DNA of 64,000 nt from Candidatus Poribacteria bacterium (GCA_965218095.1 OZ244587.1:4640001-4704000), one strand, 5' to 3'; shown: positions 4,318 through 59,002, counted from the stretch's first letter. Translations and numbers: made by a program. Notes: generated from the sequence alone by a model not told the origin.

Positions 4318-5229
4318 CTAATACTGTGTTTTCACACGGCCCCAGGTTGTTGTGACTTTTTTCTTGCCAGGATCAACTGCAAAGGGGTGCTGAAAGTTTG
4401 AGTCAGCCTGCTTCGCATCCATCGTAAAGTCATAAATCCGGACAAGATGGACTGAGCCGTTCATGTTCCGATGCTCTTCACCAAGAACCTGGCAAAATAT
4501 GGCGTTAAAGTTCATATCGGCGCCTTTGTCGAAGTCCTGCTCCGGAAAGCCGAGGTTACCGATAAACTCGCCATCCAGGTACTGTTTAACTTGCTTCTTC
4601 GCATCATCGTAAGTGTATATGATGTGGACCCACCTGGTTCCGACCGTCAGGCCGACATCGTGGTGATTCTTCCGTTTGTCGTATACGGTATTAGCCCCCA
4701 GGAGGTAGATCCAGACGTCATCCACATCCGGTCCAAATATCCAGTTTGTAAAGCCAATCATAATCCACTGGGCTCCGGTGGCAAAAGCTTTGCCATCTTT
4801 CGTGGAATGAAAGCCCATTACTTGATGCTCTGCACCTTTCATGGGGCCGTTGCGTTTCATGATGACCTCGAAGCTCCAGTTCTCCAGATGTAGGTTCGGA
4901 GTGAAGCCGGCTGGGGCGGCAAACATCTGGTTTATATCGGTAGTTTTGAACGCTGTCGGCGCCGGACCTCCTGGTTCGTAAAACTCTTCCCCTTTTTCAA
5001 GTTTCGGAGTTCCCTTTCCCAAGTCTGCTCCACCGGGAATTTCGTCCCCGGCCGTGCCGATGTTCTGCCAGGCGCCGTTTTTGAACTGCGCTTCGCCAGC
5101 GAGCATCAAGAGCTGGGGCTCCTCTGGGATTATACCTTGCACTATCGAACCGCTCATGGCAAAGAGAAACACGCCAAGAATGGCAACTCCTTTTATGTGA
5201 TGGTGATTGAATTGATTCAAGCGTAACAT
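4318..5229 (-). CDS. Secreted LamG/ConA-like jelly-roll protein with C-terminal TWG tail
   Basis: GGAGG RBS before ATG 5229; signal peptide; W.HI..TYD...YLDG, NGS...VRIYD; ends FAVDPGKKKVTTTWGRVKTQY. Confidence 0.8.
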   Translation of the reverse strand: MLRLNQFNHHHIKGVAILGVFLFAMSGSIVQGIIPEEPQLLMLAGEAQFKNGAWQNIGTAGDEIPGGADLGKGTPKLEKGEEFYEPGGPAPTAFKTTDINQMFAAPAGFTPNLHLENWSFEVIMKRNGPMKGAEHQVMGFHSTKDGKAFATGAQWIMIGFTNWIFGPDVDDVWIYLLGANTVYDKRKNHHDVGLTVGTRWVHIIYTYDDAKKQVKQYLDGEFIGNLGFPEQDFDKGADMNFNAIFCQVLGEEHRNMNGSVHLVRIYDFTMDAKQADSNFQHPFAVDPGKKKVTTTWGRVKTQY

Positions 5230-5288
5230 ATTAATACCTCCGTAATGAAATTCGCAACAACTTCTGTTGCAGGTTAGTTGAAGCTTCG

Positions 5289-5333
5289 TCATAAATGTCG
5301 TGTTCAGGCGTGGCCTGAACACGACATTTATGA
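5289..5333. other. Perfect 21-bp hairpin in a 5' leader
   Basis: tcataaatgtcgtgttcaggc-gtg-gcctgaacacgacatttatga. Confidence 0.85.
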
Positions 5334-5385
5334 TCAACCTCAGTTAGTTCGTTGGAATGGTTCATTTTTCAGGAAGGGTTAAAAG

Positions 5386-5414
5386 ATTATACCCGATAAA
5401 TCTACTTTTGTCAA
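5386..5414 (-). promoter_or_regulatory. Consensus sigma70 promoter
   Basis: TTGACA-17 bp-TATAAT on the minus strand upstream of the 5229 start. Confidence 0.8.
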
Positions 5415-5429
5415 TCAATATTAAACCAA

Positions 5430-5610
5430 CGCCCCCCGGCCCCCAATTCCCCGATGGATCGGGGCAGGCTTCAGGAGTTTTTGCAATTCTCCCCTTCCCC
5501 CCAAAGTTGGGGGGATTGAGGTCTCGGACTCTCGGTCGAAGACCGGAGGGGGCGGGGACCGCCGGACAAGCCGAAGATCCCGACCTAAGGTCGAGGGGGC
5601 ACGGAGAATT
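5430..5610. repeat. Nested REP-like palindrome cluster
   Basis: ccccggcccccaatt..., cccgatggatcgggg, ccccccaaagttgggggg and others. Confidence 0.6.
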
Positions 5611-5640
5611 AAATGCCCCTAGTCAATATTAGATCTGGAG

Positions 5641-6525
5641 TTAATAGCCCCGTTTCACACGGCCCCAGGTGGTTGTGAGTTTATCAGCAGGTTCAACAGC
5701 CAATGAAGCTATGAAGTTGTTGCGAACCCCACCTGCGCCAAGATCCTCGTCATACACCCGGACGATGGTGATTGAACCGTTGAAGGTCGAATTTACGAAG
5801 TTCTGGTCGCCCGGTTGTGCAACGAGGACAAAGTTCTGCCCCATGGCCGTGCCTTTGTTGAATTTTTCCACTTTGCGCGCTTGGTCCGCCTTGCCATCTA
5901 TGTAGGACTGGACGGTTTTACCGTCGTGGGTGAGCACTACTTGGTGCCAGTCTCCTGTTCTGATACCTTCATCGGTTTTGAGAGTGACAGCTTTCTTACC
6001 TTTAGGTTTGATCTCGGCTATGATCTGTCCCTTTGCCCCCTTGTCTACGAGCATGCGAATATACTGCCACTCCTTATTGGCTTCCGCTGCCTCGAGGTTG
6101 GGATCACCCCCTTCAACGAAGCCGAAGAAGAGAATTCCGTTCTCCTCTGCGCCTTTGAACGCTTCGCCGTTGCGCCTCAACCAGACCTCGACGGTCCAAT
6201 TCCCCAGCTTTATCTCCGGCGCTGTGCCTCGCTTCCCGCCGAAGGAACTTTCCGGCGCCGAGGCGGTGAAGTGTGCCGGGTTTTTGCCTTCTGCCGCGGA
6301 AAATTTTGGCGGAGGTGGGAAGACATGCCCCCCAATGCGGCCAGCGTCTAGATTCAGGGGAAAGACGCCGCCCGCGGCGCCAAGGTTCCTCCACGACAAT
6401 TTAGCGGTGTCTGCAGCGTTAAGATCGATTAGAGCGCCTTCCTTAACATCTTGACCGAATGCCACTGGACTAACCATTGCCAAGACAAACGCCACGCTCA
6501 GAATTGCAATTAGTTGACGTCTCAT
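5641..6525 (-). CDS. Secreted LamG-like protein with TWG tail
   Basis: Start MRRQLIAIL; WHQVVLTHDG..YIDG; ends LAVEPADKLTTTWGRVKRGY. Confidence 0.85.
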   Translation of the reverse strand: MRRQLIAILSVAFVLAMVSPVAFGQDVKEGALIDLNAADTAKLSWRNLGAAGGVFPLNLDAGRIGGHVFPPPPKFSAAEGKNPAHFTASAPESSFGGKRGTAPEIKLGNWTVEVWLRRNGEAFKGAEENGILFFGFVEGGDPNLEAAEANKEWQYIRMLVDKGAKGQIIAEIKPKGKKAVTLKTDEGIRTGDWHQVVLTHDGKTVQSYIDGKADQARKVEKFNKGTAMGQNFVLVAQPGDQNFVNSTFNGSITIVRVYDEDLGAGGVRNNFIASLAVEPADKLTTTWGRVKRGY

Positions 6526-6587
6526 TTTATATCTTCCTGTACTGCTTATTTTACAGAGCACTACCTTTATCAATATTAGATCTGGAG

Positions 6588-7481
6588 TTAATAGCCCTGT
6601 TTCACACGGCCCCAGGTGGTTGTGAGTTTATCAGCAGGTTCAACAGCCAATGAAGCTATGAAGTTGTTGCGAACCCCACCTGCGCCAAGATCCTCGCCAT
6701 ACACCCGGACGATGGCGAGTGAACCGTTGAAGCTCGACTTTACGAAGTCATGGTCGCCCGGTTGTGCAACGAAGACAAAGTTCTGACCCATCTTCGCGGC
6801 TTTGTCCCATCCTTCCACTTTGCTCGCTTGGTCCGCCTTGCTATCTATGTAGGACTGGACGGTTTTACCGTCGTAGGTGAGCGCTACCTGGTGCCAGTCT
6901 CCTGTTCCGATACCTTCATCGGTTTTGAGAGTGACAGCTTTCTTACCTTTAGGTTTGATCTCGGCTATGATCTGCCCCTTCGCCCCCTTGTCTACGAGCA
7001 TGCGAATATACTGTATGTCGTTAGCCATCGCTTCCTTGACAATGTCGCCAGCGTTGTGTAGATCTTCGGGGATGAAGCCGAAGAAGACAAACCCGTTCTC
7101 CTCTGCGGGTTCGACCATTTCGCCGTTGCGCCTCAACCAGACCTCGACGGTCCAATTCCCCAGCATTATCTCCGGCGCTGTGCCTCGCTTCCCGCCGAAG
7201 GAACTTTCCGGCACCGAGGCGGTAAAGTGTGCCGGGTTTTTGCCTTCTGCCGCGGAAAATTTTGGCGGAGGTGGGAAGATATGCCCCCCAATGCGGCCAG
7301 CGTCTAGATTCAGGGGAAAGACGCCGCCCGCGGCGCCAAGGTTCCTCCACGACAATTTAGCAGTGTCTGTAGCGTTAAGATCGATTAGAGCGCCTTCCTT
7401 AACACCTTGACCGAATGCCACTGGACTAACCATCGCCAAGACAAACGCCGCGCTCAGAATTGCAATTAGTTGACGTCTCAT
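6588..7481 (-). CDS. Secreted LamG-like protein with TWG tail (recent tandem paralog of 5641-6525)
   Basis: Near-identical sequence and the same 3' flank (tcaatattagatctggag); ends LAVEPADKLTTTWGRVKQGY. Confidence 0.85.
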   Translation of the reverse strand: MRRQLIAILSAAFVLAMVSPVAFGQGVKEGALIDLNATDTAKLSWRNLGAAGGVFPLNLDAGRIGGHIFPPPPKFSAAEGKNPAHFTASVPESSFGGKRGTAPEIMLGNWTVEVWLRRNGEMVEPAEENGFVFFGFIPEDLHNAGDIVKEAMANDIQYIRMLVDKGAKGQIIAEIKPKGKKAVTLKTDEGIGTGDWHQVALTYDGKTVQSYIDSKADQASKVEGWDKAAKMGQNFVFVAQPGDHDFVKSSFNGSLAIVRVYGEDLGAGGVRNNFIASLAVEPADKLTTTWGRVKQGY

Positions 7482-7625
7482 TTTATACTCTCCTATACTG
7501 TCTGGCAAAAAATTGCCATCATATACGTCACTCATGTTCAATATCTTTTTTGCTTAGATTATGAGCGACAACACCTTCACTTGACACTTGAGGTACAATC
7601 CATCATATAGAATGATTAACTAACT

Positions 7626-7654
7626 ATTCTATCACAATCCCAAATTCTTGTCAA
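7626..7654 (-). promoter_or_regulatory. sigma70 promoter
   Basis: TTGACA-17 bp-TAGAAT with an extended TG. Confidence 0.75.
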
Positions 7655-7781
7655 CCCTTTTTTCCATTCTCCGAGGGCTATTTATCTCCGAGGGCTATTT
7701 AATTTTCGATATTCGATGATACCAGGGTGGGGCGGTACTCCACCTTGGAAAGGTTACGATTTATCTGGACTTTGCGTAAAG

Positions 7782-8669
7782 CTAATATCCCCTTTTCACA
7801 TGGCCCCAGGTGGTTGTGAGTTTATCGGCAGGCTCAACAGCCAAAAAATCTATGAAGTTCGTACGAACCCCACCCGCGCCAAGCGCCTTGTCATACACCC
7901 GGATGATACTGAGTGAACCGTTGAAGCTCTCCCCGTTGCGGTCCCAGTCAAGTTGTCCAAGGAAAACCATGTTCTGATCCATAACCTCAGGCACGAAGGC
8001 CACATCCACGTCGTGCAACTTTTGCGCCTTGCCATCTATGTAGGACTGGAGTGTTTTGCCATCACCCTTGTATTCGACCGCAAACTGGCGCCACTCTCCT
8101 GTTCCGATACCCTCTTCGGTTCTGAAAGTCAGAATTTTGCCCTGTGGCACTTTGACCTTGAAGACTATCTGCCCCGCTGCCCCATCTGCTACGAACATAC
8201 GAATATACTGCACGTTGGGGGCATCGAGTTCAAATACGCGTGCCGCTTGATCTACCTTCTCCGACCCGAGGCCGAAGTAGGCAAGTCCGTTCTCGTCGCC
8301 CTGTTCCCACGCTTCGCCGTTGCGCCTCAACCAGATCTCAATGGTCCAGCTCGTCCCCAGCTTGAAGTGCGAAGCGGTGCCGCGTATTGAGCCGAAGGAG
8401 CTAGACGGTACCTCGCTGGTGTAATGTGCCGGCTCGTCACCCTCGGCCTTTACGTGTTTGGGCGGAGGTGGGATTTTCGACCAGTTGTCTGCATTTAGGG
8501 CAAATTTTCCGCCGGACGTGCCATCATTCCCCCAAAACAATGGCCTAGCATTCTCGCTCGCCGCGTTAAGCTCTATCTGGGCGCCAGGGGCAACACCGAA
8601 TGCCATTGAACCGGCCATTGTCAAGACAAATGCCGCGCTCAGAATTGAAATCGGTTTTAGGCGTATCAT
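7782..8669 (-). CDS. Secreted LamG-like protein with TWG tail
   Basis: Start MIRLKPIS; paralog of the two adjacent genes; ends LAVEPADKLTTTWGHVKRGY. Confidence 0.85.
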   Translation of the reverse strand: MIRLKPISILSAAFVLTMAGSMAFGVAPGAQIELNAASENARPLFWGNDGTSGGKFALNADNWSKIPPPPKHVKAEGDEPAHYTSEVPSSSFGSIRGTASHFKLGTSWTIEIWLRRNGEAWEQGDENGLAYFGLGSEKVDQAARVFELDAPNVQYIRMFVADGAAGQIVFKVKVPQGKILTFRTEEGIGTGEWRQFAVEYKGDGKTLQSYIDGKAQKLHDVDVAFVPEVMDQNMVFLGQLDWDRNGESFNGSLSIIRVYDKALGAGGVRTNFIDFLAVEPADKLTTTWGHVKRGY

Positions 8670-8759
8670 TTTATATCCTCTTGTATCGTAAGTAACTATG
8701 CGAAATATTCTTGCACTTTTGATCCTGCAAGAAACTACACACCACAAAAAACCGTTCAA

Positions 8760-9053: not shown

Positions 9054-10025
9054 TTAGGGTGTAAGTGCGCAGCGAAAACCAACGTTGTTGCGCGTGTCCG
9101 TTGGGTCGCGGCTGTTGCGGCTCGCCACGCGCAAGTGACGAAAATGGAGGTTCCAACTCCCGCCGCGAAGGACGCGCACTGTATTAACACTTGTGAAACT
9201 ATTGTTCATAAAAGATATTAGCCCGCCTGCAATCGGGTTCTCCTTCGGACTGTTCGCATAAAAGCCTGACTGGTACTCATCCATGCACCACTCCCAGACG
9301 TTCCCCGCCATGTCGTGCAAGCCATAGCCGTTGGGTGGGAAGCTGCCGACGGGAGAAGTTCGTTCCCACTGCTTGGCTCCCTCTGCGCCGAGATAATTGG
9401 CGTTATCCTGAGAGATCTCATTGCCCCACGGATACCGCTTACCGTCTAATCCACCACGAGCGGCTTTCTCCCACTCTGCTTCGGTGGGCAGGCGTTTCTC
9501 CGCCCACTGGGCATAAGCAGCGGCGCCATACCAGCTCACCTTAGTTACCGGATGATCCGCGAAGCCCGCCTTCGGGCGATACTCTCCGTAAACCAATTTA
9601 ATCAACGCGTTTGCGTCGTCAACCTCCAACCATTCTTTTCCATCATCCCCCACATGCTGACTGACAGCATTGAGGAACTTCGCGTACTGGGCGTTGGTCA
9701 CTTCGTAAACGTCGAGGTAGAAATCGTCGAGATAGACGGAATGTCGAGGCACTTCATCTTCAAAAGATGAACGTTGAACTGCAAAGAAAGCAAAGTCAAG
9801 CACTAATTGATCAGCCTCTGCTTCGGTAGTTCCCATCTCAAACTCCCCGGCGGGGATGAGCTGCATCGTCGCGGTCGCGTCATCCTTTTCGGTGATAATT
9901 TCTTCCGGGTTCTGAGGTGGCGTATCTTCTTCAGTCAATAGGTCGGGTGTATCGTTAGCACAGCCCGTCAATAAAAGGCAGGGCAAGGAAAAGGCGCATA
10001 TTGAGATGACTGTAAATTTCCACAT
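9054..10025 (-). CDS. FGE/SUMF1-fold lipoprotein without PKD domain (copy E)
   Basis: Lipobox LTGC; RLPTEAEWEKAARG, GNVWEW, RGGSW...GFRC. Confidence 0.9.
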   Translation of the reverse strand: MWKFTVISICAFSLPCLLLTGCANDTPDLLTEEDTPPQNPEEIITEKDDATATMQLIPAGEFEMGTTEAEADQLVLDFAFFAVQRSSFEDEVPRHSVYLDDFYLDVYEVTNAQYAKFLNAVSQHVGDDGKEWLEVDDANALIKLVYGEYRPKAGFADHPVTKVSWYGAAAYAQWAEKRLPTEAEWEKAARGGLDGKRYPWGNEISQDNANYLGAEGAKQWERTSPVGSFPPNGYGLHDMAGNVWEWCMDEYQSGFYANSPKENPIAGGLISFMNNSFTSVNTVRVLRGGSWNLHFRHLRVASRNSRDPTDTRNNVGFRCALTP

Positions 10026-10288: not shown

Positions 10289-12196
10289 TTAGATAAACCG
10301 ATTAAGCAGATTTCTGCCGAGAAGCGTTCCCAACAAGCCCCAGAAGCTCACCATGACGAAGTCCCCCAGAACAAGACCGATGAAAAATACGCTTGCCCTG
10401 CGATGAAGGGCTAACCCACCAAATTTCAAGATAATCCATTTTAAGAGCCAGCTTATGAATATCGAAAACCAGAGGATTCCAGACGACGGCCAGGGCCCGC
10501 CGAGAAGATATCCCATCGGGTGGAACGGCCACCAGATAAAGACGCGGTGCATAAAAAGTAAAAAGAACCCGATAAAGGCGCCAAACCCCATTGTAACCAG
10601 GGAAAGGACATCCGCGGGCTGGGGGTAGAGAAGCCGGTTCGTCAGCATATTGAATATGCTCCACTGGTCGCTGCCGGCATGGGGACCGCCCTTTATCTGA
10701 TATGAAGAATGGAGTACCGCCCAGCATGCGGCAAACGTGCCGATGATAATCGCCAGAACCATCCCCCAAATCAACATTTTATCTATCTTGAGCCGCATCC
10801 GCTCGGCCATCTTAAACGTCTCCAGTTGATAAGGTTGTGGGTTGCCCCTGTGACCACTGGTCAGAAAATAGAGAAAGGGAAACAGCGTCAAACTCTTGGG
10901 GCCAATCCGGCGAGTTCCCACAGCTGCCACCACGATGAGATCACTCCAGAGCCCCTCATGCATCGGATAGCCGACCTCCGCTCGGATGCGCGTGACAACC
11001 AGCGAAATGGCGAAGAAAATCAGGAAGAACATCGCAGCTACCCAGACTTTCATCCCCGCATAGGAAAGAAACCCCACCAGATATCCGAAGCTCAGGAGAA
11101 GCCCTAAAACCGCCCATCTATACCCCTTTAACTCAGCGGCGTCTCCCTCAGTATGACCGAAAAAGCTTCTTAGGATCTTCAACGCCTGAAACCGATACAT
11201 CCAGAGGGAAAAAAGCAGGATGGCAGCGGAAGTGCCGACGGCCTGTTCCCATTCGAACGGAAATCCCTGCAAGGCCCCCACCCCTGTGAGCCTTCCCAGT
11301 ACCCGCTCAAAACGCCAGACCCAATAGAAAAACCACATGGAGAAGGACATCTCCAGCGGCATGAAATAAGCTAAACCAATCACAAAGGGATGAAAAGCTC
11401 CGCTAACCCCGCCAAGGGCGTCCCATGGCCGGGTCGTGAAGTATTGACTCAACGAGAACCCCTCAACGAGGATGCCCGGAACATTCGGGTAGAGATAGTG
11501 AAAGCCGTTTATCAAGGTCCTCCCGGCGGCGAGGGCAAACCCTATCCATAAAAGCCCGCTCTTGAACAGCCCTGCGCCTTTGTCTATCATCTCCAGAGGG
11601 ATTTGCGTCAGCGGATAGGAGAGTCTTTCATGCTCTATCCATTGACGACGCACCAGAATCGTTGTGCAGAGCATAAATAACACCGCCGCTATGGTCACCA
11701 TAGCCCATGCGATGGAAGGGATGAGCCATGTCCTTATATATTCCTTCACGTAGAGGGTGCTTTCACCTGTGTAATATCCATCGAGGACCAACTTATCGCT
11801 GACCACGAGCCATCTGGGGATGTAGGGATGAAAAAGCTTCCACTCGTTTTCCGGCGTCGCGTAATAGAAGGCATGCCCCAGCCCAGGATAGAGATGTTGA
11901 AGCATGTCATGCCCGGCGAGTCCAGATGAGATGGATAACATCGCATGCAGGAGCAGCATCTCCGTCTTGGTCAGGGCAACCGAAGGGAGAAACCGCTTGA
12001 GGGGGATGTTCAGGAAGCACAGGACGAAGAGGATTGAGACAACGTTCATGAAGAGGGAGAAACGGGTGAAATTCACCCCGTATCCGAGATAACCCGTATG
12101 TATCACCCACAGGGTGTTCAACGGCATAAGGATCAGGGTGAAAAAAATGAGTTTTATCGTTGTAAAGGAACCCGCTCTATGTCTCTTTTTATCCAA
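10289..12196 (-). CDS. Polytopic membrane protein, probable transporter (DUF6785/DUF6784-like)
   Basis: 635 aa with many TM segments; RRQW...E.L.YPL, RIRAE.G and WWPFHP.GY motifs. Confidence 0.7.
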   Translation of the reverse strand: MDKKRHRAGSFTTIKLIFFTLILMPLNTLWVIHTGYLGYGVNFTRFSLFMNVVSILFVLCFLNIPLKRFLPSVALTKTEMLLLHAMLSISSGLAGHDMLQHLYPGLGHAFYYATPENEWKLFHPYIPRWLVVSDKLVLDGYYTGESTLYVKEYIRTWLIPSIAWAMVTIAAVLFMLCTTILVRRQWIEHERLSYPLTQIPLEMIDKGAGLFKSGLLWIGFALAAGRTLINGFHYLYPNVPGILVEGFSLSQYFTTRPWDALGGVSGAFHPFVIGLAYFMPLEMSFSMWFFYWVWRFERVLGRLTGVGALQGFPFEWEQAVGTSAAILLFSLWMYRFQALKILRSFFGHTEGDAAELKGYRWAVLGLLLSFGYLVGFLSYAGMKVWVAAMFFLIFFAISLVVTRIRAEVGYPMHEGLWSDLIVVAAVGTRRIGPKSLTLFPFLYFLTSGHRGNPQPYQLETFKMAERMRLKIDKMLIWGMVLAIIIGTFAACWAVLHSSYQIKGGPHAGSDQWSIFNMLTNRLLYPQPADVLSLVTMGFGAFIGFFLLFMHRVFIWWPFHPMGYLLGGPWPSSGILWFSIFISWLLKWIILKFGGLALHRRASVFFIGLVLGDFVMVSFWGLLGTLLGRNLLNRFI

Positions 12197-14281: not shown

Positions 14282-14517
14282 CTGCTTCCTCCTATAAGAA
14301 AAGTGAAAAGTCAGAAACAAGGAGAACAAGGGACTACCCCCGATAAATCAGGGTAGAGCCTGGTCTCGCATAGCGGACTCCGAGAATCGGAGAGCGTTGC
14401 CCTCCCGGGGGGGGGTAGCAAACCATCAATCTTCACGTATGTTTCATAGACAACCTGGACGGTTATACTCATGTAGGTTATTATTTGTGAATTTCTATGT
14501 GAAGAGATATCGCATCC

Positions 14518-20603: not shown

Positions 20604-21347
20604 TTAGAAACTCTTTATCCGACCCCAGGCGGTTGTGAGTTTGGCTTCAGGTGAAACTGCGAAAAAATTCATATCTATCTTAGGAATCTCATCACCTGTA
20701 ATGACGACGTTATCGAAATGAACCTCGCAATTTCTTCCCAGGATTGCTGCAGCCCCTGTAGCTCGGAACCTACCTAGGAAATTACAAACTAACGTGTCGT
20801 TGATAAACATCCTGTAACGATTTCCATCAGCAACAATTCGCAATGCATACCATCTCCCCTCCTTAATAGGGAAATTGACAGCAACCTCAACAATGTCTGC
20901 GTCTCCTTGAAAGAAGAGTTCGCAAAAAGCCGCATTCCAGTCATCACCTTCTGTCGAAATCTTAACATCTGTACCAGTGATGAAGCCTTTTGTATCGTCG
21001 TAACGAACCCCAATGCTAAAGAATGGCCGCCGGGAGGGAAAATCACATCCAGCATGGAGGAAAGCTTGTTCAACTTTGGCTTGGCACTCAAACTCATAAT
21101 CTTTCCATGTATTATCGCCAATTCCAAGGGTGCTTGCCGATCGACAAACCCCTTGGGAAAGGCAAACCAGTTCGCCTTCTTCCACAAACCATTGGGCTGA
21201 TTCACCATGGATGAAAACATCTCCGGCCTTCCCTTCAAATAGCCGCCACCCATCAAGATTCCCATCGTCAAAGTTATCCCTTAATGTTCGTGCCCATGCC
21301 GATGTTGCCAGCAGGAATAGTATCAACCCAACCATTGTGTGTTTCAT
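20604..21347 (-). CDS. Secreted ConA-like (DUF1080-like) protein with TWG tail
   Basis: Signal peptide ending AWA; DNFDDG, WKDYEF, FDNVVI; ends FAVSPEAKLTTAWGRIKSF. Confidence 0.7.
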   Translation of the reverse strand: MKHTMVGLILFLLATSAWARTLRDNFDDGNLDGWRLFEGKAGDVFIHGESAQWFVEEGELVCLSQGVCRSASTLGIGDNTWKDYEFECQAKVEQAFLHAGCDFPSRRPFFSIGVRYDDTKGFITGTDVKISTEGDDWNAAFCELFFQGDADIVEVAVNFPIKEGRWYALRIVADGNRYRMFINDTLVCNFLGRFRATGAAAILGRNCEVHFDNVVITGDEIPKIDMNFFAVSPEAKLTTAWGRIKSF

Positions 21348-22609: not shown

Positions 22610-22627
22610 ATATCCTCCATTTACACG

Positions 22628-22857: not shown

Positions 22858-22860
22858 GGT

Positions 22861-24284: not shown

Positions 24285-25136
24285 TTAATACTGCGTTTTC
24301 ACACTGCCCCAGGTTATTGCGAGTTTTGAGGCAGGCTCAACTGCTGCCGCCTCGGGGTTTTTGAAGTTGTTGCGAATTTCCGCATCGCTCAGCACCCGGT
24401 CATACACCCGGACAAGATGGATTGAACCGTTGAAGTTCCGACGCGCTTCAGAACGGACCTGGCAGAAGATCGCGTGATAGTTCATATTCACATCTTTGAC
24501 AAAGTCATGAACAGTCTTTATCGCCTTTTCTTTCTCGCCATCCATCCAGGGCTGAAGTTGGTTGCCTCCTCGTCCGCCTTTATCTTTGTAGGTGAATAAG
24601 ATGTGGTGCCACTTTCCTACCCCGATATCCATGACGCCGTAAGCCACCCGGTTTGCCAACGGGGTCTTCGCCCCTTTGAGGTACATCCACATCGCCCCCC
24701 CGTTCACCGTGTAGAAGCCCAACATGATCCACTGGCTTTGTTCTGTAAACCAACCGCCACCATCCACAGAATGGAAGCCAGCGACCTGGTGCTCATCGCC
24801 ATACGCTGGGCCGTTGCGCTTCAAGATGACCTCGACAGTAAAGTCCTCCAGATGCAGGGTCGGGTTAGCACCGGCCGGGCCGCCGAATATCTGGCTCCCC
24901 CTTTTAGCGGTGAACCGCGCCGGGTTCTTACCCTCGGCCGGTTCGAAAACCGGTGCCGACCCACCGGGTATCACCCCACCGGCGACGCCGCGGTTCTTCC
25001 AGCTACCGTTGACGAGGCTCGCTTCGTCAGCAATAAGCTCAAGCTGGGGGCCTTTGACGGCGCCTCGCGCCATAGAACCGGCCATTGCAAAAAGAAGCGT
25101 CAGACTGAGAATCGCAATTCCTTTTAGGTAGTTCAT
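24285..25136 (-). CDS. Secreted LamG-like protein with TWG tail (paralog of the 4318 gene)
   Basis: Shares LHLE..KRNGP..EHQV.GFHS; ends AAVEPASKLAITWGSVKTQY. Confidence 0.85.
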   Translation of the reverse strand: MNYLKGIAILSLTLLFAMAGSMARGAVKGPQLELIADEASLVNGSWKNRGVAGGVIPGGSAPVFEPAEGKNPARFTAKRGSQIFGGPAGANPTLHLEDFTVEVILKRNGPAYGDEHQVAGFHSVDGGGWFTEQSQWIMLGFYTVNGGAMWMYLKGAKTPLANRVAYGVMDIGVGKWHHILFTYKDKGGRGGNQLQPWMDGEKEKAIKTVHDFVKDVNMNYHAIFCQVRSEARRNFNGSIHLVRVYDRVLSDAEIRNNFKNPEAAAVEPASKLAITWGSVKTQY

Positions 25137-25736: not shown

Positions 25737-26567
25737 ATGAAAGGCATTATCACGAGATTCCTTTTCGTCTCTGTCAGTATCATTGTCGTGAGTCTTTGGT
25801 CTCCACTCCGGGGTTCTGCCGAAATTGACCTCAAAAACGTTGTGGGAATCTGGACCTTTGATGAGGGCACAGGTGACCTGGCCAAGGACATCTCTTTGAA
25901 AAGGAATCATGGAAAGCTTATTGCCCCAAAGAGAAATGATCCTCCAAAATGGGTCAAAGGAAAGTTTAGTCAGGCGTTGGAATTTGACGGGCAACCGTAT
26001 TTTGGGAATTATGTTGACATGGGGGATCCAGCGGACGGCTCTCTCGATTTTGGGAAAAACGATTTTTCCGTCACTTGGTGGTTCAAAACGACAGCGCTGG
26101 GCAAGTATATGGTTTCCAAAAAAGCTGCTGGTCACTTTGATGCAGGTTTTCATGCCAATCTGGATGGCCCAAGGGGGAATCTTCGTATCCTTCTGGCAGA
26201 TGGGAAGATAGATGCCAGCGTGGATGGGGAAACAGGGAACCTCCATAACGACAAATGGCATCATGGCGCTTTTGTGAGATCTGGAGATAAGTTACAGGTG
26301 TACGTGGATGGGAGGGCAAATAACTCGACGGCCGGCGTCGTAAACCTTGACATTAGCAGCACGACGAATTTTTATGCCGGTCGAGAGAACAATGGAAACA
26401 AGAGATACCCCGGCCTCCTCGACGACCTTGCCGCCTTTTCTGTTGCCTTAACGGAAGATGAGATTAAAGAGATCATGAACGAGGGGCTAAGAGAGGTAGT
26501 TCCGACTGCTGCCGTTTCCCCCAAAGGGAAACTTGCCACTGCTTGGGGCGCCATCAAAGCCCGATAA
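25737..26567 (+). CDS. Secreted LamG-like protein with TWG tail
   Basis: W.FDEG.G, GKF..ALEFDG, WHH, YVDG, G.LDDL; ends AAVSPKGKLATAWGAIKAR. Confidence 0.9.
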   Translation: MKGIITRFLFVSVSIIVVSLWSPLRGSAEIDLKNVVGIWTFDEGTGDLAKDISLKRNHGKLIAPKRNDPPKWVKGKFSQALEFDGQPYFGNYVDMGDPADGSLDFGKNDFSVTWWFKTTALGKYMVSKKAAGHFDAGFHANLDGPRGNLRILLADGKIDASVDGETGNLHNDKWHHGAFVRSGDKLQVYVDGRANNSTAGVVNLDISSTTNFYAGRENNGNKRYPGLLDDLAAFSVALTEDEIKEIMNEGLREVVPTAAVSPKGKLATAWGAIKAR

Positions 26568-50681: not shown

Positions 50682-50727
50682 ATCAAATTTCCTTTCATAT
50701 GGCTGGTGTGAAATTATCTAAGACGGT

Positions 50728-52134
50728 TCAGTCGCCTGTCGCTGAACGGAACGAGTAAATCTCTGCAGACCGAAGCAGAAAACGTAACGCAATCTGCTTA
50801 CCAATTAGCGCCTTTAGGTCTTGCGGCTGATCCAACCAAGTTGGTTCAGCGGACACGTCATCACGATAAAGTGGATTGCTCTCGCATCTCGAATAGCCGG
50901 GGATGACGGCGCCCCCCTCGTCCAGAATCTCGATCCGCAGCCACCCGTCGCTGCTATCGAGCCCGGTGTAAGTCCACAGGTTACCACCGGATACACGATA
51001 GTTGACACGAAGTCGCCCACCCGGCCACACGAATGGCTTGGTCGTCACCAATCCCTCACGTCTGCCGGCGCGAAGCGAGACGAACCCGTCCACTCGGAGC
51101 TTCGCCAATCCGATGCACCGATTGTGAGTCATGAAGCGGTCGCCATGAAAACTCGGACCCCCATAGTAGTAAATCCAGATCGCATCCTCGCATCGAATGG
51201 GAGGGCCGTTGGCGGGCGTGGATACCGCATAGTCGAACGCCCCGATATCCCGCCCAGTCGGGGGCGTCGCGAAGAACGGTGTCCGGGGTCGTAGGCGATG
51301 CCAAGAACGGGTGTCCCGGCTCACCGTCAGCTCCACATCGGCATAAGGCGGCTCGCACGTGTGATACCGTTCGATGAAGCCGAGGTACAGGCTTTCGTAT
51401 CGGAACGCACTCATTTGATAGAACTCGACATACGGCCCATCCTCCAGGTCCGGACGTAGTGCGAGTTGCGACGCAGATGAGACCGTCCGCCCATCCCGGC
51501 TGCCGACCCGATAGACGCACCGAATCCACTGTCGCTCACGCATATCTTTGCCGTCTCGGCTGAGGATAACGTACGGTTCTTCTGCCTGTGGATCGAAGAG
51601 CGCCGTGGTGCGATCCCCGAAACCGGGTAAGATGGCGTCCTCCTGCTTCGATGGAATCGTCCAGTGCAGTCCATCCGGTGAGTTGCCGACGAAAACGCCG
51701 GTTCCTTGATAAAGCATCAGCTTCCATGGGCGCTCTGTGTCCCGCGTGTCATGCAATATCGTCGGCCCGTCCATCCGCAACGGCGTGGCGAAGAGGACAT
51801 TGCTGGGTCCGCCAATGACGTCCCGGCAGATATCTAGTTCCGGTCGCGTCCAATGAATTCCGTCCTCGCTGGTGATTGTACATAGCATCGAACGGTACCC
51901 CTCGTAGTCGCGCGGGTGAGTCACATACCAGGCGCGAAAGCCACCGGCCACCTCATCGCGATAGACCCCCGCGATAAAGCTGATGCTGGGAATCTCCCAC
52001 GGCATTTCCGGTACAAAGAGCGGATTGAGTCTCGACCGCACGGGCTGGTGCACTACACGCTCCAGAAGCGTCTGGTGTTCGATAATCTCGTCATCCACAA
52101 AAAGTTGAGCTTGGCAAACATCAATCGGAATCAT
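50728..52134 (-). CDS. Five-bladed beta-propeller glycosidase-like protein (copy B)
   Basis: QLFVDD, S.DGIHW.RP, SRD...W.R, IGLA.LR.DGFVSL. Confidence 0.65.
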   Translation of the reverse strand: MIPIDVCQAQLFVDDEIIEHQTLLERVVHQPVRSRLNPLFVPEMPWEIPSISFIAGVYRDEVAGGFRAWYVTHPRDYEGYRSMLCTITSEDGIHWTRPELDICRDVIGGPSNVLFATPLRMDGPTILHDTRDTERPWKLMLYQGTGVFVGNSPDGLHWTIPSKQEDAILPGFGDRTTALFDPQAEEPYVILSRDGKDMRERQWIRCVYRVGSRDGRTVSSASQLALRPDLEDGPYVEFYQMSAFRYESLYLGFIERYHTCEPPYADVELTVSRDTRSWHRLRPRTPFFATPPTGRDIGAFDYAVSTPANGPPIRCEDAIWIYYYGGPSFHGDRFMTHNRCIGLAKLRVDGFVSLRAGRREGLVTTKPFVWPGGRLRVNYRVSGGNLWTYTGLDSSDGWLRIEILDEGGAVIPGYSRCESNPLYRDDVSAEPTWLDQPQDLKALIGKQIALRFLLRSAEIYSFRSATGD

Positions 52135-53270: not shown

Positions 53271-54521
53271 CTAGGCGTGGGAAGGTGGTACAGTAAACTC
53301 CCCTTCCTTCTGTACTCTCTCGTAGGTCCGGGCAAATTCCTCAGAGCTGTCGTCAACCCACAACTCAAAATTGATTCCCCGGATAGTTCCCTCCTCACGG
53401 CCTGTCAACTGACTGACACTGGCCCAGTGTGGGGTATAAATCTTGTGACCGCCTGGCAGGTGCAGGATACCCACGTGTTTGGATGCCTCTATCGGTTTAT
53501 TCGCCGCAAACCGTTTGAGGGTATCTTCGTCTACCTCATAACCCAGTCCGGGGCCTTCTGGGACAGGGGAAAATCCTTCGATTACCGGAATTCGTTCCGT
53601 GGTGATGTCCTCTTCGTACTGGTCGTCCAAGTTGATTGAATGACCGGTCATGGAGGGCAGGACAGCGGCCATATGTAATGCCAACGCCTTCATCAGCGTT
53701 CCCCCTGTCAACTGCATTATCGTCTGGATGTTTGCCAACCCACAAACAGTCCCGCGGGCCAGGGTATCACCGATACTACATGTCGGCAGCCCGTCCCCGA
53801 TCATATAGATGTCAGCCGCACCGAAGATGATCTCCTGGAATCCGCCAAGAACCGGTCTATGCATCACAATCGGGATTTGGGTTTGTTCCCGTAGCATCCG
53901 CCAGCCATCGAGATCAGTCCTTACGAGCGGGTCTTCGATGAAGCCAACGATGGGGTGATTTTTCTCCAACTCACTGACCAGGGGCAGCAAAGCCGCCAGG
54001 GTACGGCTGCCGTTGAAATCGTAGTGTATCTTAAAACCTTCCGGTGCGACTTCTTCAGCGGCGCGTGTCTGCTCTAGGACATCGTACATTGCGCTCGTAT
54101 GCACCTTAAATACCATGTAACCTTGGGCAACCGCCCGACGAATTTCTTCACGGAATACTCTCGGCGAACACGGCCGGGTCCATGCTCCAACGGTGACTGC
54201 ATCTCGCACTTTTTGCCCTATTAGCTTGTAGGCTGGTACTTCAAGGTATTTCCCCATTACATCATAGAGCGCGCCGCCCAAGCCGGGGGTAAATGTATTG
54301 TTGATAAAGTCAAACGGGTTGCGGCCGATGAGAGGCTCGACACTCGATTGCAGAGGCAGAAGACCAGGCCAATCAGAATCGCAGTAGCCGATTAGCCCGT
54401 TGTCTGTGTGGATTTTGAAAACCGCGCGATGGTCTATGCCGCCTAAGCGGGCTTTGTGGTTCTCATAACGTTTTGCCAGCGGCGGGTGAATTCGGATAAT
54501 CTCAATATCGGTAATCTTCAT
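53271..54521 (-). CDS. Mandelate racemase/muconate-lactonizing enzyme family (enolase superfamily)
   Basis: MKITDIE, TDNGL.GY, ALYD..GK...VP.Y.L.G, FK.H, DFN, IEDP, P.GPGLG. Confidence 0.85.
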   Translation of the reverse strand: MKITDIEIIRIHPPLAKRYENHKARLGGIDHRAVFKIHTDNGLIGYCDSDWPGLLPLQSSVEPLIGRNPFDFINNTFTPGLGGALYDVMGKYLEVPAYKLIGQKVRDAVTVGAWTRPCSPRVFREEIRRAVAQGYMVFKVHTSAMYDVLEQTRAAEEVAPEGFKIHYDFNGSRTLAALLPLVSELEKNHPIVGFIEDPLVRTDLDGWRMLREQTQIPIVMHRPVLGGFQEIIFGAADIYMIGDGLPTCSIGDTLARGTVCGLANIQTIMQLTGGTLMKALALHMAAVLPSMTGHSINLDDQYEEDITTERIPVIEGFSPVPEGPGLGYEVDEDTLKRFAANKPIEASKHVGILHLPGGHKIYTPHWASVSQLTGREEGTIRGINFELWVDDSSEEFARTYERVQKEGEFTVPPSHA

Positions 54522-54581: not shown

Positions 54582-55808
54582 TTAATCGGCACAGAATATT
54601 CCCTCTGCTTGCACTCGTTCATAGATCTGGACGAACGCTTCAGAACCATCGTCTTCCCACACTTCAGATTTGATTCCCCGGATTGTCCCTTCTTCACGAC
54701 CCGTCACCCTACTCGGTGAAACATAGGAAGGGCCGTAGAACGTGTGACCGCCTGGCATACGCAAGATTCCCACATGTTTGGGTATCTCTATGGGGGTATT
54801 CGCAGCGATGCGCGTCAGGGCTTCTTCGTCCACCTCATAGCCCAGACCGGGGGCTTCCGGAACGGGTGATGAACCCTCGATGACCGGAACCCGCTCTGTG
54901 GTGATGTCCTCCTCGTACTGGTCGTCCAGATTGATCGTATGGGCAGTGTGAGTAGGCAGGACAGCGGCGATATGCAGCGCTAACGCCTTGGTGAGCGTAC
55001 CTCCTGTCAGTTGGACAAGTGTCTGGATGTTGGCCCTTCCAAGAGCGAAGCCCGTAGCCAAGGTATCCCCAACACCGCCTCCGAGCATATAGATATCAGC
55101 AACGCCGCAAATGACTTCCTGCATACCGCCGAGTGGCGTCACGTGCATGATGATTGGGATTCGCGTTTGCTCCCGCAGCCGTCGCCAACCGTCGATATCG
55201 GTCCTCACGAGTGGGTCTTCGATGTATCCGACGATGGGGTGATTCTTCTCCAGTTCACTAACGAGGGGCAAAACCGCTCCCAGGCTACGGTTGCCATTGA
55301 AGTCATAATGAATCTTAAAGCCTTCCGGGGCCACCTCTTCGGCGAGGCGCGTTTGCTCTATGACGTCGTGGTGAGCGCATGTGTGTATCTTAAAGATGGT
55401 GTAGCCTTCTGCCGCTGCTCGGCGGATTTCTTCGCGAAACTCTTCTGGCGAAGCCGGTCGAGTCCAGGCTGCAACCGAAACTGCATCCCGCACTTTTTGC
55501 CCCATTAGTTTGTAAGCGGGCACTTCGAGGTATTTCCCCATCACGTCGTAGAGGGCGCCGCTCAAGCCCATGTCTAAGTTGCTGTTGATGAAGTCAAACG
55601 GATCGCGGCCAATGAATGGCTCTACACTCGACTGAGGAGGTTGCCTTCCGGGGCGCCCTCGTATGTCGCCGTACCCGACCAGCCCATTGTCTGTATGCAC
55701 CTTGAAAACTGTGCGATGGTCTATGCCGTATAAACTGACTTTACGGTTTTTGTAGCGTTTTGCGAGACGTGGAAAAATTGGAATAATCTCAATGTCGGTA
55801 ATCTTCAT
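54582..55808 (-). CDS. Mandelate racemase/MLE family paralog
   Basis: Same motifs; tandem paralog. Confidence 0.85.
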   Translation of the reverse strand: MKITDIEIIPIFPRLAKRYKNRKVSLYGIDHRTVFKVHTDNGLVGYGDIRGRPGRQPPQSSVEPFIGRDPFDFINSNLDMGLSGALYDVMGKYLEVPAYKLMGQKVRDAVSVAAWTRPASPEEFREEIRRAAAEGYTIFKIHTCAHHDVIEQTRLAEEVAPEGFKIHYDFNGNRSLGAVLPLVSELEKNHPIVGYIEDPLVRTDIDGWRRLREQTRIPIIMHVTPLGGMQEVICGVADIYMLGGGVGDTLATGFALGRANIQTLVQLTGGTLTKALALHIAAVLPTHTAHTINLDDQYEEDITTERVPVIEGSSPVPEAPGLGYEVDEEALTRIAANTPIEIPKHVGILRMPGGHTFYGPSYVSPSRVTGREEGTIRGIKSEVWEDDGSEAFVQIYERVQAEGIFCAD

Positions 55809-56412: not shown

Positions 56413-56449
56413 TGCATTCACACGTGCTAGTCGAAGCTGCATAGCGAGA

Positions 56450-56551
56450 GAGGTTGCTGTTCTGCAACTTTGCTATGCAGGGGAAAGCGCTTTGAACGCT
56501 TCCATCAGGACTCTTGTGGATGATTACATGAGACTGACTGGTAGTTGACAT
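56450..56551 (-). pseudogene. 5' stub of the sialidase-family gene
   Basis: First ~33 codons match the 50681 gene start. Confidence 0.7.
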
Positions 56552-56598
56552 ATCAAATTTCCTTTCATACGGCTGGTGTGAAATTATCCAAGACGGGA

Positions 56599-58002
56599 TC
56601 AGTCGCCTGTCGCTGAACGGAACGAGTAAATCTCTGCCGAGCGTAGTAGAAAGCGCAACGCAATCTGCTTACCAATTAGCGCCTTTAGGTCTTGCGGCTG
56701 ATCCAACCAGGTCGGTTCAGCGGACATGTCATCACGATAGAGTGGATTGCTCTCGCATCTCGAATAGCCGGGGATGACGGCGCCCCCCTCGTCCAGAATC
56801 TCGATCCGCAGCCACCCGTCGCTGCTATCGAGCCCGGTGTAAGTCCATAGGTTACCACCGGATACGCGATAGTTGACACGAAGTCGCCCACCTGGCCACA
56901 CGAATGGCTTGGTCGTCACCAATCCCTCACGTCTGCCGGCGCGAAGCGAGACGAACCCGTCCACTCGGAGCTTCGCCAATCCGATGCACCGATCGCGATT
57001 CATGAAGCGGTCGCCATGAAAACTCGGCGCCCCTTTGTAGTAAATCCAGATTGCATCCTCGCATCGAATGAGAGGGCTGGTGGCGGGCGTAGACACCGCA
57101 TAGTCGAACGCCCCGATATCCCGCCCAGTCGGGGGCGTCGCGAAGAACGGTGTCCGGGGTCGTAGGCGATGCCAAGAACGGGTGTCCCGGCTCACCGTCA
57201 GCTCCACATCGGCATAAGGCGGCTCGCACGTGTGATACCGTTCGATGAAGCCGAGGTACAGGCTTTCGTATCGGAACGCACTCATTTGATAGAACTCGAC
57301 ATACGGCCCATCCTCCAGGTCCGGACGTAGCGCGAGTTGCGACGCAGATGAGACCGTCCGCCCATCCCGGCTGCCGACCCGATAGACGCACCGAACCCAC
57401 TGTCGCTCACGCATATCTTTGCCATCTCGGCTGAGGATAACGTACGGTTCTTCTGCCTGTGGATCAAAGAGCGCCGTGGTGCGATCCCCGAAACCGGGTA
57501 AGATGGCGTCCTCCCGCTTCGATGGAATCGTCCAGTGCAGTCCATCCGGTGAGCTGCCGACGAAAACACCACTTCCATGATAAAGGATGAACTTCCATGG
57601 GCACGCGGTGTCCCGTGTGTCATGCAATATCGTCGGCCCGTCCACCGTCAACGGCGTGGCGAAGAGGACATTGCTGGGGCCGCCGATGACATCCCGGCAG
57701 ATATCCAGTTCCGGTCGCGTCCAATGAATTCCGTCCTTGCTGGTGATTGTGCATAACATCGAACGGCACCCCTCGTAGCTGCGCGGGTGAGTCACATACC
57801 AGGCGCGAAAGCCACCGGCTGACTCATCGCGATAGACCCCCGCGATGATGACGCTGGGAATCTCCCACGGCATTTCCGGTGCAAAGAGCGGATTGAGCCT
57901 CGACCGCACGGGCTGATGCACCACACGCTCCAGAAGCGTCTGGTGTTCGATAATCTCGTCATCCACAAAAAGTTGAGCTTGGCAAACGTCAATCGGGATC
58001 AT
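56599..58002 (-). CDS. Beta-propeller glycosidase-like protein (copy A)
   Basis: Near-identical to 50728-52134. Confidence 0.7.
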   Translation of the reverse strand: MIPIDVCQAQLFVDDEIIEHQTLLERVVHQPVRSRLNPLFAPEMPWEIPSVIIAGVYRDESAGGFRAWYVTHPRSYEGCRSMLCTITSKDGIHWTRPELDICRDVIGGPSNVLFATPLTVDGPTILHDTRDTACPWKFILYHGSGVFVGSSPDGLHWTIPSKREDAILPGFGDRTTALFDPQAEEPYVILSRDGKDMRERQWVRCVYRVGSRDGRTVSSASQLALRPDLEDGPYVEFYQMSAFRYESLYLGFIERYHTCEPPYADVELTVSRDTRSWHRLRPRTPFFATPPTGRDIGAFDYAVSTPATSPLIRCEDAIWIYYKGAPSFHGDRFMNRDRCIGLAKLRVDGFVSLRAGRREGLVTTKPFVWPGGRLRVNYRVSGGNLWTYTGLDSSDGWLRIEILDEGGAVIPGYSRCESNPLYRDDMSAEPTWLDQPQDLKALIGKQIALRFLLRSAEIYSFRSATGD

Positions 58003-58168
58003 ATATCCTCCTTTGAAATCTTCTTACTCCCATCTGGCTGACAATTCGCAGGGTTTGTCCAGGAGGTTGTCAGCACGATGTGGCCGCCCCTGGTCACCTA
58101 TCAAGCGGAACTCACCGGCAGAGTCTGTCAATAATTTTGTGTAAAATCTATTGCGCGGTAAACCTTTC

Positions 58169-59002
58169 TCACACCTTCAGCCACCCCCATAGCGTCACAC
58201 GCTTGGCTCTGGGAGAAACGTCGGCAGACGCAGTACCATACCAATCAGGGGCGAAGTCCTTCCCCGGTTCCTTTGTCAGACGGTGAGACATCCGCGTACC
58301 AATATCTAATACATAAATATCCAAAACGCGATCGGTATCATCTGCCAAGCGGACATAAGCAATGTGTTTTCCATCCGGTGACCACGTTGGCTCAAGGTCA
58401 ATCCACTTACGATTATTTGTCATATTGCGCAGAAACAATCCATCGGCATTCATCACGTAGATTTCCGCTCGTTGTCTTATTGGCCATCTGGTAAAGGCAA
58501 TTTCCCCGTCTGGTGACCACGCGGGCGAAGAATTCTGCAAGTCCGGACGGTTTGTCAGATTGCGGGGATTGTTTCCATCGGCGTCCATCACGTAGATGTC
58601 TCCGGTTATCTTTGCCCTTCTTTCCTCTCTGTGGAAGGCAATAAATCGACCATCCGGCGACCACGCGGGGTCATGGTCGTCGTCGGGATGGTCTGTCAGT
58701 CTCCGGACGTTGTTTCCATCGGCGTCCATCACGTAGATTTCAAAGTTCCCGTCTCGACCGCTAGTGAAGGCGATTTGGGCAAGTCGCGGCGGCTGCGCTT
58801 GCGCTTGATTATTTATCCATAGCGTCGTCCTGCTAGGTAGTAGATATCCAAAATTGATGGAGATTGCACCGATCCCAATCAACGCAATAAATGTCGCAAT
58901 CCCAATGCTTGGAATCAGTTGCTTGGGTAACAGTCTCCCAATGGTCTGGATAAGACTCCCTTTTGGCAAACTCCCAACCCGTTCCATCATCTGGTTTAGC
59001 AT
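58169..59002 (-). CDS. TolB-like PD40-repeat protein with TWG-like tail
   Basis: IYVM.ADG..LT...P.WSPDG repeats; ends ADVSPRAKRVTLWGWLKV. Confidence 0.85.
   Translation of the reverse strand: MLNQMMERVGSLPKGSLIQTIGRLLPKQLIPSIGIATFIALIGIGAISINFGYLLPSRTTLWINNQAQAQPPRLAQIAFTSGRDGNFEIYVMDADGNNVRRLTDHPDDDHDPAWSPDGRFIAFHREERRAKITGDIYVMDADGNNPRNLTNRPDLQNSSPAWSPDGEIAFTRWPIRQRAEIYVMNADGLFLRNMTNNRKWIDLEPTWSPDGKHIAYVRLADDTDRVLDIYVLDIGTRMSHRLTKEPGKDFAPDWYGTASADVSPRAKRVTLWGWLKV

Follow-up and report, generated by a model that had tools for sequence, protein, structure and literature searches.

Eight exported proteins encoded in a 64,000-nucleotide stretch of a Candidatus Poribacteria bacterium genome (GCA_965218095.1, OZ244587.1:4640001-4704000; hereafter the window, with positions counted from its first letter) end in a common tail of about 17-20 residues. 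Poribacteria are uncultivated, abundant sponge symbionts. The question raised by this locus is whether the tail is a protein-sorting signal, as a sequence-only reading of the window had proposed. Our analysis supported that it is a portable C-terminal tag on exported proteins, so far undescribed. We give even odds (about 0.5) to its being a sorting or anchoring tag read by one shared envelope factor.

The eight genes and their tails are listed below; E values for the tails come from the independent hidden Markov model (HMM) described further on.

4318..5229, minus strand: LamG-like exported protein, 303 amino acids (aa) from ATG 5229; Laminin_G_3 E = 2.8e-6
4321-4380, minus strand: tail of the 4318 gene, with a one-residue insertion; tail HMM E = 1e-3
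5641..6525, minus strand: LamG-like exported protein, 294 aa; canonical tail at 5644-5700; tail HMM E = 6.9e-10
6588..7481, minus strand: LamG-like exported protein, 297 aa; canonical tail at 6591-6647; tail HMM E = 6.1e-10
7782..8669, minus strand: LamG-like exported protein, 295 aa; canonical tail at 7785-7841; tail HMM E = 3.4e-10
20604..21347, minus strand: DUF1080 (3-keto-disaccharide-hydrolase-like; Pfam 3keto-disac_hyd) exported protein, 247 aa (P0001)
20607-20660, minus strand: tail of the 20604 gene, canonical; tail HMM E = 3.6e-9
24285..25136, minus strand: LamG-like exported protein, 283 aa; canonical tail at 24288-24344; tail HMM E = 1e-7
25737..26567, plus strand: LamG-like exported protein, 276 aa, near-identical to database protein P0006; Laminin_G_3 E = 1.7e-23
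26511-26564, plus strand: tail of the 25737 gene, canonical; tail HMM E = 3.8e-8
58169..59002, minus strand: PD40 (TolB-like) beta-propeller protein of 277 aa, hydrophobic segment at its N-terminus
58172-58222, minus strand: tail of the 58169 gene, a divergent variant that fits the loose motif and misses the independent tail HMM (-2.4 bits)

All eight genes named by the sequence-only reading were recovered, with the C-termini it had quoted. Likely ATG starts lie inside the listed open reading frames (ORFs) at 5229 (gene 4318), 6525 (5641), 7481 (6588), 8669 (7782) and 21347 (20604), and each of the eight proteins has an N-terminal hydrophobic leader. Pfam assigned Laminin_G_3 to 4318, 5641, 6588, 7782, 24285 and 25737, 3keto-disac_hyd to 20604 and PD40 to 58169; for all eight, the match stopped about 25-30 residues short of the C-terminus. 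Tail genes also occur in tandem arrays, such as the four different paralogues in a row at 4318-8759 (6588 being a tandem paralogue of 5641 with 81% body identity) and three PD40 genes in locus L010.

The motif WG.[VIL]K occurred exactly 8 times in the 1,847 six-frame stop-to-stop segments of at least 20 aa of the window, always in the eight listed genes and 1-3 residues before the stop. A degenerate 45-nt back-translation of the core gave 6 matches in the window, compared with a mean of 0.00 in 100 dinucleotide-preserving shuffles. The two genes it missed were 4318, with the one-residue insertion, and 58169, with R for L and L for T.

We have then scored the window with a 19-column tail HMM, which carries about 2.5 bits per position and whose training set was limited to 137 unique tails of other genomes. 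Seven of the eight tails were retrieved at E <= 1e-3, six of them at <= 1e-7, and the next segment had an E value of 2.5; the 4318 tail scored only E = 1e-3 because of its one-residue insertion. Hence, the claim of eight shared tails held for seven canonical ones, whereas the PD40 tail of 58169 ranked 726 of 1,072 segments (-2.4 bits). Since it retains the consensus V, S, P, K, T, W, G, L and K, we have classified it as a divergent variant. The database relative P0007 carries the same variant tail, and canonical tails occur on PD40 proteins elsewhere.

For window pairs with a body identity below 30% (n = 22), the mean identity was 0.20 in the body versus 0.53 in the 16-residue tail. All synonymous codons were used at the invariant V, P, T, G, L and K, with a third-position identity of 0.37 against an amino-acid identity of 0.65. 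Such free synonymous variation indicated selection on the peptide and not on the DNA, and ruled out a DNA- or RNA-level element.

A 32-column profile of the eight window tails was searched against 1,835,955,588 representative proteins. There were 141 matches at E <= 1e-3, many of them short metagenomic fragments, which together with P0002 gave a set of 142 database proteins. The resulting consensus is [LFA]-A-V-[SED]-P-x-x-K-L-[TA]-T-T-W-G-x-[ILV]-K-x(1-10)-end, with these residue counts among the 142 proteins: V 138, P 136, K 140, L 130, T 126, T 114, W 142, G 141 and K 141. The variable end of 1-10 residues after the conserved K is mostly basic, polar or aromatic. It is rich in R, Q, A, S, T, G, Y and K, R being the commonest (89/472 residues), and has no obligatory basic cluster. 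The last residue was R in 31, Y in 21, F in 17, Q in 16, K in 14 and E in 12 proteins, with others making up the rest (n = 137). A word-indexed protein search with the last 44 residues of the DUF1080 protein returned 2 candidates only and was too insensitive to be of use.

The 45-nt pattern was also scanned against one genome per species from 185,579 species. Among the matches listed, a hand count gave at least 138 loci from 82 assemblies; by our own arithmetic, and assuming uniform base composition, chance alone would give about 9 matches in 1.2e12 positions. The record titles named Candidatus or uncultured Poribacteria for 134 of the 138 loci and "uncultured bacterium" for 4, and none named another phylum. 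This strongly suggested, as far as titles and matches listed go, that the tail is restricted to Poribacteria. A metagenome-assembled genome from 3,000 m depth in the ocean was among the matches (L085, L103), so the tail also occurs outside sponge-derived records.

If the tail is a terminal signal, its position in these proteins should be strictly C-terminal. All 140 unique genome matches had a stop 1-12 codons downstream, and the motif lay no more than 10 residues from the end in 137 of the 142 database proteins. The five exceptions had 15, 36, 43, 59 and 63 residues after the motif, and at least one of them (P0080) seems to run into the signal peptide of the next gene. By these counts, the motif is not internal.

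Association with export was assessed on ORFs of at least 200 aa closed at both ends, from loci L001-L080 and the window, using a simple signal-peptide heuristic. A signal-peptide-like N-terminus was called for 104 of the 106 tail-bearing ORFs, which come from about 70 loci of 4 kb, versus 35 of the 130 other ORFs of the same DNA, a set that includes spurious frames. The two tail ORFs missed by the heuristic have leaders visible by eye, so the tail was not seen on leaderless proteins. Three "lipobox" calls among the tail ORFs look like type-I signal peptides with a Cys within the hydrophobic core. In the window, the lipobox-type proteins (the FGE-sulfatase proteins 2393, 9054 and 46789, plus proteins 14627 and 29399) and the cytoplasmic-type enzymes have no tail, as the sequence-only reading had stated. 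The lack of the tail on lipobox proteins would fit an alternative placement route for non-lipoproteins.

The passengers are small (about 210-440 aa), have no catalytic domain and are mostly lectin-like or carbohydrate-binding beta-domains. Pfam analysis of 74 tail proteins from the loci assigned Laminin_G_3 to 37, CBM9_1 to 4, DUF3108_like to 3, PD40 to 2, 3keto-disac_hyd to 2, F5_F8_type_C to 2 (26.5 and 28.0 bits, just under the cut-off of 28.2) and DUF4960 to 1; 2 had weak sub-threshold matches only and 21 had no Pfam family. Among 37 further full-length representatives, there were Laminin_G_3 (22), PD40 (4), 3keto-disac_hyd, i.e., DUF1080 (3), WD40 (1) and PKD (1), with no family for 6. 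The one exception to this pattern, a 341-aa record joining sigma-70 region-4 domains to DUF1080, was taken as a gene-call fusion. Hence, unrelated Pfam families carry the tail, and it is not tied to one domain family.

Within a family, most relatives have it. The pattern found the tail in 59 of 71 LamG relatives of P0006; among the 12 that it did not match, W-G is replaced by W-S in five and by W-R in one (P0154, P0162, P0167, P0168, P0179 and P0187), two are truncated, and four are longer, with other architectures and no tail (P0201, P0207, P0211 and P0212). For the DUF1080 relatives, the tail was present in 22 of 25, the remaining three being truncated. Other natural forms are a ...TTWGREK... 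version with E in place of I/L/V (P0012, P0020 and P0108) and one W-A form (P0057). These variants would be useful to map the tolerance of a reader.

Structure prediction placed the tail outside the folded body. The AlphaFold2 model of P0006 (72-row alignment, mean predicted local distance difference test score, pLDDT, 85.3) has a confident LamG core that reaches about residue 254, a linker of pLDDT < 50 at 259-265, and a tail drawn as a helix at 262-275 with block means of 51-72. In the model of the DUF1080 protein P0001 (22 rows, mean pLDDT 85.0), the core extends to about residue 219 and the tail at 233-246 is drawn as a helix with values of about 54-55. Both models thus show the tail as a separate low-confidence appendage, which is most likely disordered until bound. 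A complex prediction of the DUF1080 protein (20-247) with the LamG protein (27-276) had a score of 0.00 and a mark of 0.32, and counts neither way. When the tail alignment was run as a profile against the PDB, no chain matched at E <= 10, and the best score of an ESM Atlas search with P0006 residues 250-276 was 0.83, below a meaningful level.

The physical character of 282 unique tails was compared with that of shuffled sequences. The tails are polar, with a negative mean hydrophobicity and a mean net charge of +2.65, and an S/D/E-Pro pair stands at the would-be helix N-cap position. The hydrophobic moment at 100 degrees was 0.225 versus 0.236 in shuffles; the only excess, a weak one, was strand-like (160 degrees; 0.384 versus 0.242, z = 1.16). 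A helical-wheel reading that put L, W, I and Y on one face had suggested an amphipathic-helix membrane anchor. This was rejected, as the helical moment was no higher than that of shuffles, and we therefore claim no membrane-binding amphipathic helix.

We have searched for earlier descriptions of the tail in domain databases and in the literature. Searches of Pfam-A with whole proteins, and with 32-residue tails on their own at E <= 10, left the tail unmatched. No sorting-signal model of NCBIfam 20.0 matched the 8 window proteins (E <= 1), 6 isolated tails (E <= 10) or 25 further tail proteins. None of the conditions that the sequence-only reading had named as refuting it (internal or cytoplasmic occurrence, integration into one domain family, a match to a characterised sorting-signal HMM) was thus observed. 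The only recurrent NCBIfam match was that of the LamG domain to TafC, below threshold (E down to 1.7e-12; 47 bits against a cut-off of 410). TafC is described, in the sections of PMC12337348 on which we draw, as the proposed tip protein of haloarchaeal Tat-fimbriae, assembled by strand donation. A full-text literature search found no paper with the strings KLTTTWG, KLATTWG or TTWGxIK, and searches on Poribacteria combined with sorting signals, LamG, type IX secretion system (T9SS), exosortase or PEP-CTERM turned up no such tail. The sections of Kamke et al. (2014; PMC3909097) used here report possible TIGR04183 domains on poribacterial WD40 and other proteins; the same sections leave open the secretion route of poribacterial surface-type proteins because Por/T9SS structural genes were not found in the single-cell genomes.

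How does the tail compare with known C-terminal systems? The signals of LPXTG/sortase, PEP-CTERM/exosortase, GlyGly-CTERM/rhombosortase and MYXO-CTERM/myxosortase resemble it in being short, portable, Pro-containing C-terminal motifs. Like these tripartite sorting domains, it is found on unrelated signal-peptide-bearing carriers within one lineage, in many copies per genome, and a many-to-one logic is implied in both. However, the tripartite signals have a transmembrane helix after the motif and are covered by NCBIfam sorting models, whereas only 1-12 residues follow the conserved K of the poribacterial tail and no such model matches it. The T9SS-substrate C-terminal domain (CTD) (TIGR04183, type A; TIGR04131, type B) is alike in combining a Sec signal peptide with a C-terminal non-membrane signal in a diderm, and its passengers also include lectin-like and beta-propeller proteins. 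Yet this CTD is a folded beta-sandwich of about 70-100 residues, according to the parts of PMC4804311 drawn on here, while the tail has 17-20 residues and is not predicted to fold as a domain. When the 8 window proteins, 6 tails on their own and 25 additional tail proteins were searched, neither TIGR04183 nor TIGR04131 matched, and a T9SS CTD remnant was rejected on this ground. The earlier statement that the tail has no transmembrane helix and is far shorter than a T9SS CTD was thus borne out, and the tail falls outside both classes.

Other systems offer partial likenesses. Dockerin-cohesin pairs also use a C-terminal add-on, common to unrelated extracellular modules of one organism, for attachment and not for catalysis; dockerins, however, are Ca-binding duplicated domains of about 60-70 residues, and no dockerin Pfam match was obtained on the tails at E <= 10. 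The peroxisomal signal PTS1, an extreme C-terminal tripeptide of eukaryotes read by the soluble tetratricopeptide-repeat (TPR) receptor PEX5, is likewise a very short C-terminal targeting peptide with no transmembrane segment. It belongs to another domain of life and another compartment, and the conserved block of the tail precedes a variable end. In about 6 of 80 loci, a TPR protein is encoded near a tail gene. This places TPR proteins with the commoner neighbours, at a frequency not shown to exceed chance. The chaperone-free archaeal Tafi pili, assembled by donor-strand complementation according to the sections of PMC12337348 used above, are alike in that a short terminal peptide of an exported beta-rich protein could insert into a partner. 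In our case the TafC match covers the LamG-like domain only (47 versus 410 bits), the tail has no alternating hydrophobic pattern, and no filament genes were seen. The beta-signal of outer-membrane proteins was not recognised either: the last residue was Y, F or W in only 39 of 137 tails, and the preceding positions were K, R, G or polar.

The reading that we favour, at the even odds given above, is that the tail is portable and serves in sorting or anchoring, with a single envelope factor as the reader of all carriers. That V, P, K, L, T, T, W, G and K are near-invariant on unrelated passengers suggests one common reader, of the kind that keeps LPXTG, PEP-CTERM and T9SS signals constant. A short linker joins the tail to its carrier, a small exported protein that in most cases is lectin-like or carbohydrate-binding. 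Such a protein would be exported by Sec across the inner membrane and lose its N-terminal signal peptide; the exposed polar, basic tail, unstructured or weakly helical when alone, would then be bound by one Poribacteria-specific envelope factor. This factor would either carry its cargo through the outer membrane or attach it there or to the cell surface, possibly with cleavage at the invariant A-V-x-P. The dedicated reader, the outcome in secretion or surface attachment and the cleavage are what we infer. The carriers are binding modules and not enzymes, so attachment to something would be functionally necessary for them, a need that fits both surface anchoring and docking to a scaffold or to one another.

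Several points weigh against this reading. No consistent machinery candidate emerged from the flanks of the 80 loci (143 ORFs), either by Pfam or when 33 window proteins were compared with all loci by tblastn. Binding modules predominate overwhelmingly among the passengers, and a docking or oligomerisation tag would suit them equally well. Having neither the transmembrane helix of the sortase type nor the folded domain of T9SS, the tail has no known mechanism to borrow. Moreover, a close LamG relative bearing the tail (P0153) is labelled "Planctomycetes bacterium" by its source, and the restriction to Poribacteria holds among the matches listed, which is not proof.

In the flanks, the recurrent families were TPR (about 6 loci), FGE-sulfatase (4-5), FG-GAP/ASPIC (4), DUF3500 (3), LysM (3) and MurJ (3). 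By tblastn, the recurrent window proteins were FGE-sulfatase (4 genomes), MR_MLE (3), one unnamed family (3) and DUF6785 (1 genome). The window envelope genes DUF6785/6784, DUF4159 and ORF 26797-27627 stood beside tail genes too rarely to count. No sortase-like enzyme was seen near tail genes by Pfam in the window and flanks; T9SS machinery was absent from the window Pfam matches, and no genome search aimed at T9SS genes was made.

The strongest rival is a docking or assembly tag: the tail would plug the modules into a scaffold or into one another, in the manner of a dockerin with its cohesin or of strand donation in chaperone-free pili, and would build multivalent lectin arrays with no membrane translocation involved. 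It would explain why almost all passengers are non-catalytic binding folds in need of attachment, and it agrees with the tandem arrays of different paralogues (4318-8759; the three PD40 genes of L010), with the strand-like character of the sole, weak moment excess, with the sub-threshold resemblance of LamG passengers to TafC and with a cohesin-plus-dockerin protein adjoining one tail gene (L005). On the other hand, no acceptor protein was found, the tail has no donor-strand-type alternating hydrophobic pattern and is modelled by AlphaFold as a weak helix and not a strand, and the TafC resemblance is limited to the LamG-like domain. We regard docking as unlikely. The three other explanations that we considered are weaker. 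A basic, Trp-containing tail could stick non-specifically to anionic lipid, lipopolysaccharide or polysaccharide, and C-terminal amphipathic helices do anchor some periplasmic enzymes to the membrane surface. The mean net charge of +2.65, the invariant Trp with two invariant Lys, and the short C-terminal helix modelled in two unrelated passengers, with S/D/E-Pro at its N-cap position, would suit such an anchor. Its probability is nevertheless low, given a helical moment equal to that of shuffles, a negative mean hydrophobicity, low helix confidence (pLDDT about 51-72) and nine near-invariant positions across unrelated passengers, far beyond the needs of lipid binding.

A processing or turnover signal, that is, a pro-peptide or degron for a periplasmic C-terminal processing protease that sets maturation or lifetime and not location, is in our view lower still in probability. 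The strictly C-terminal position with a variable 1-10-residue end and the invariant small-residue/V/x/P segment, a possible cleavage site, speak for it; but tail-specific proteases usually recognise the extreme C-terminal residues, which are variable here, and there is no evident reason why small binding modules alone would need it. Hardly credible is a structural leftover, in which the tail, with no role of its own, would be the inherited end of a single paralogue family that has expanded, or a strand or helix integral to the fold. The dominance of Laminin_G_3 among carriers (37/74 and 22/37) counts for it, as does DUF1080, which we take to belong to the same concanavalin-like superfamily as LamG. 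However, the tail is also present on PD40 and WD40 beta-propellers, CBM9, PKD, DUF3108-like, DUF4960 and no-Pfam families, lies outside the confident core in both AlphaFold models, is missing from the four distant LamG relatives of other architecture, and keeps an identity of 0.53 where that of the body is at noise level (0.20).

A number of observations concern the neighbours of tail genes. Four FGE-sulfatase-domain proteins (757-2463, 2393-3892, 9054-10025 and 46789-48351) are encoded in the window, three of them with PKD and those at 2393, 9054 and 46789 with lipobox-like N-termini, and proteins of this type flank the four-gene tail cluster. The family adjoins tail genes in 4 other genomes (L014/15, L023, L024 and L030), twice with overlapping stop/start; as the family is abundant, this adjacency is not shown to exceed chance. 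The C-termini of these proteins presumably resemble the variable regions of diversity-generating-retroelement targets, and no reverse transcriptase was seen in the window. The large DUF6785+DUF6784 membrane protein (10289-12196) lies two genes upstream of the tail-gene cluster on the same strand, and a homologue is found directly downstream of two F5/8-type-C-like tail genes in another genome (L078/L079), these being two cases only. Two DUF4159 proteins (17009-18496 and 27631-28980), with N-terminal hydrophobic segments, are encoded 1-2 kb from tail genes. One of these genes comes after that of an unassigned exported 276-aa protein (26797-27627), which ends in Trp in the manner of outer-membrane barrels, and L048 has a third DUF4159 gene (L048:1-855) close to a tail gene. 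The cohesin + dockerin protein (L005:2106-3767) adjoins a tail gene, convergently, in one poribacterial genome. DUF3500 genes stand beside CBM9-type tail genes (L008, L047 and L064), and a LysM protein together with a homologue of window ORF 33027-34325 stands beside DUF3108-like tail genes (L028, L035 and L057). Such passenger-specific neighbours suggest conserved small operons for single passenger families.

The window as a whole (GC 0.45-0.58) is rich in envelope and carbohydrate-related genes according to Pfam: besides the FGE-sulfatase proteins, it encodes BNR/sialidase-like proteins, a heparinase-like protein, the DUF6785/DUF6784 membrane protein, the two DUF4159 proteins, two proteins with a peptidyl-prolyl isomerase (PPIase) domain and cytoplasmic enzymes. 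A segmental duplication comprises 50725-52134 and 56596-58002, which encode 467/468-aa proteins of no Pfam family with about 95% DNA identity over the stretch compared; they bracket tandem MR_MLE (enolase-superfamily) paralogues (53271-54521 and 54582-55808) that are 74-76% identical. Three leaderless paralogues of about 600-635 aa (12422-14329, 18643-20463 and 61384-63276) share N- and C-terminal motifs, with a weak GH127 middle-domain match in only one of them. The lowest GC (0.45) is at 20001-24000, a type I restriction-modification specificity-subunit gene lies at 22861-24135, and an IS1595-family transposase is located at 60350-61231.

For the biology of Poribacteria, the tag, which dozens of small lectin-like proteins carry, is a sequence handle: with it, the "glycan-reading" proteins that any poribacterial genome probably displays or secretes may be listed. 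It also permits phylogenetic profiling for the cognate machinery and a search of sponge metaproteomes for carriers. There is a real chance that the reader is a new machine, and if so, the tail would define a third architectural class of C-terminal sorting signal beside the sortase-type tripartite signals and the T9SS domains. More tentatively, and with the odds somewhat against it, the tail could be the signal of a new outer-membrane sorting or surface-attachment system found only in Poribacteria, whose reader is unrelated to sortase-like enzymes and T9SS and which dresses the cell with a large, fast-diversifying lectin-like repertoire for contact with sponge-host or particle glycans. If this is true, a short C-terminal sorting peptide without the form of a transmembrane segment or a folded domain would be seen for the first time in a diderm bacterium.

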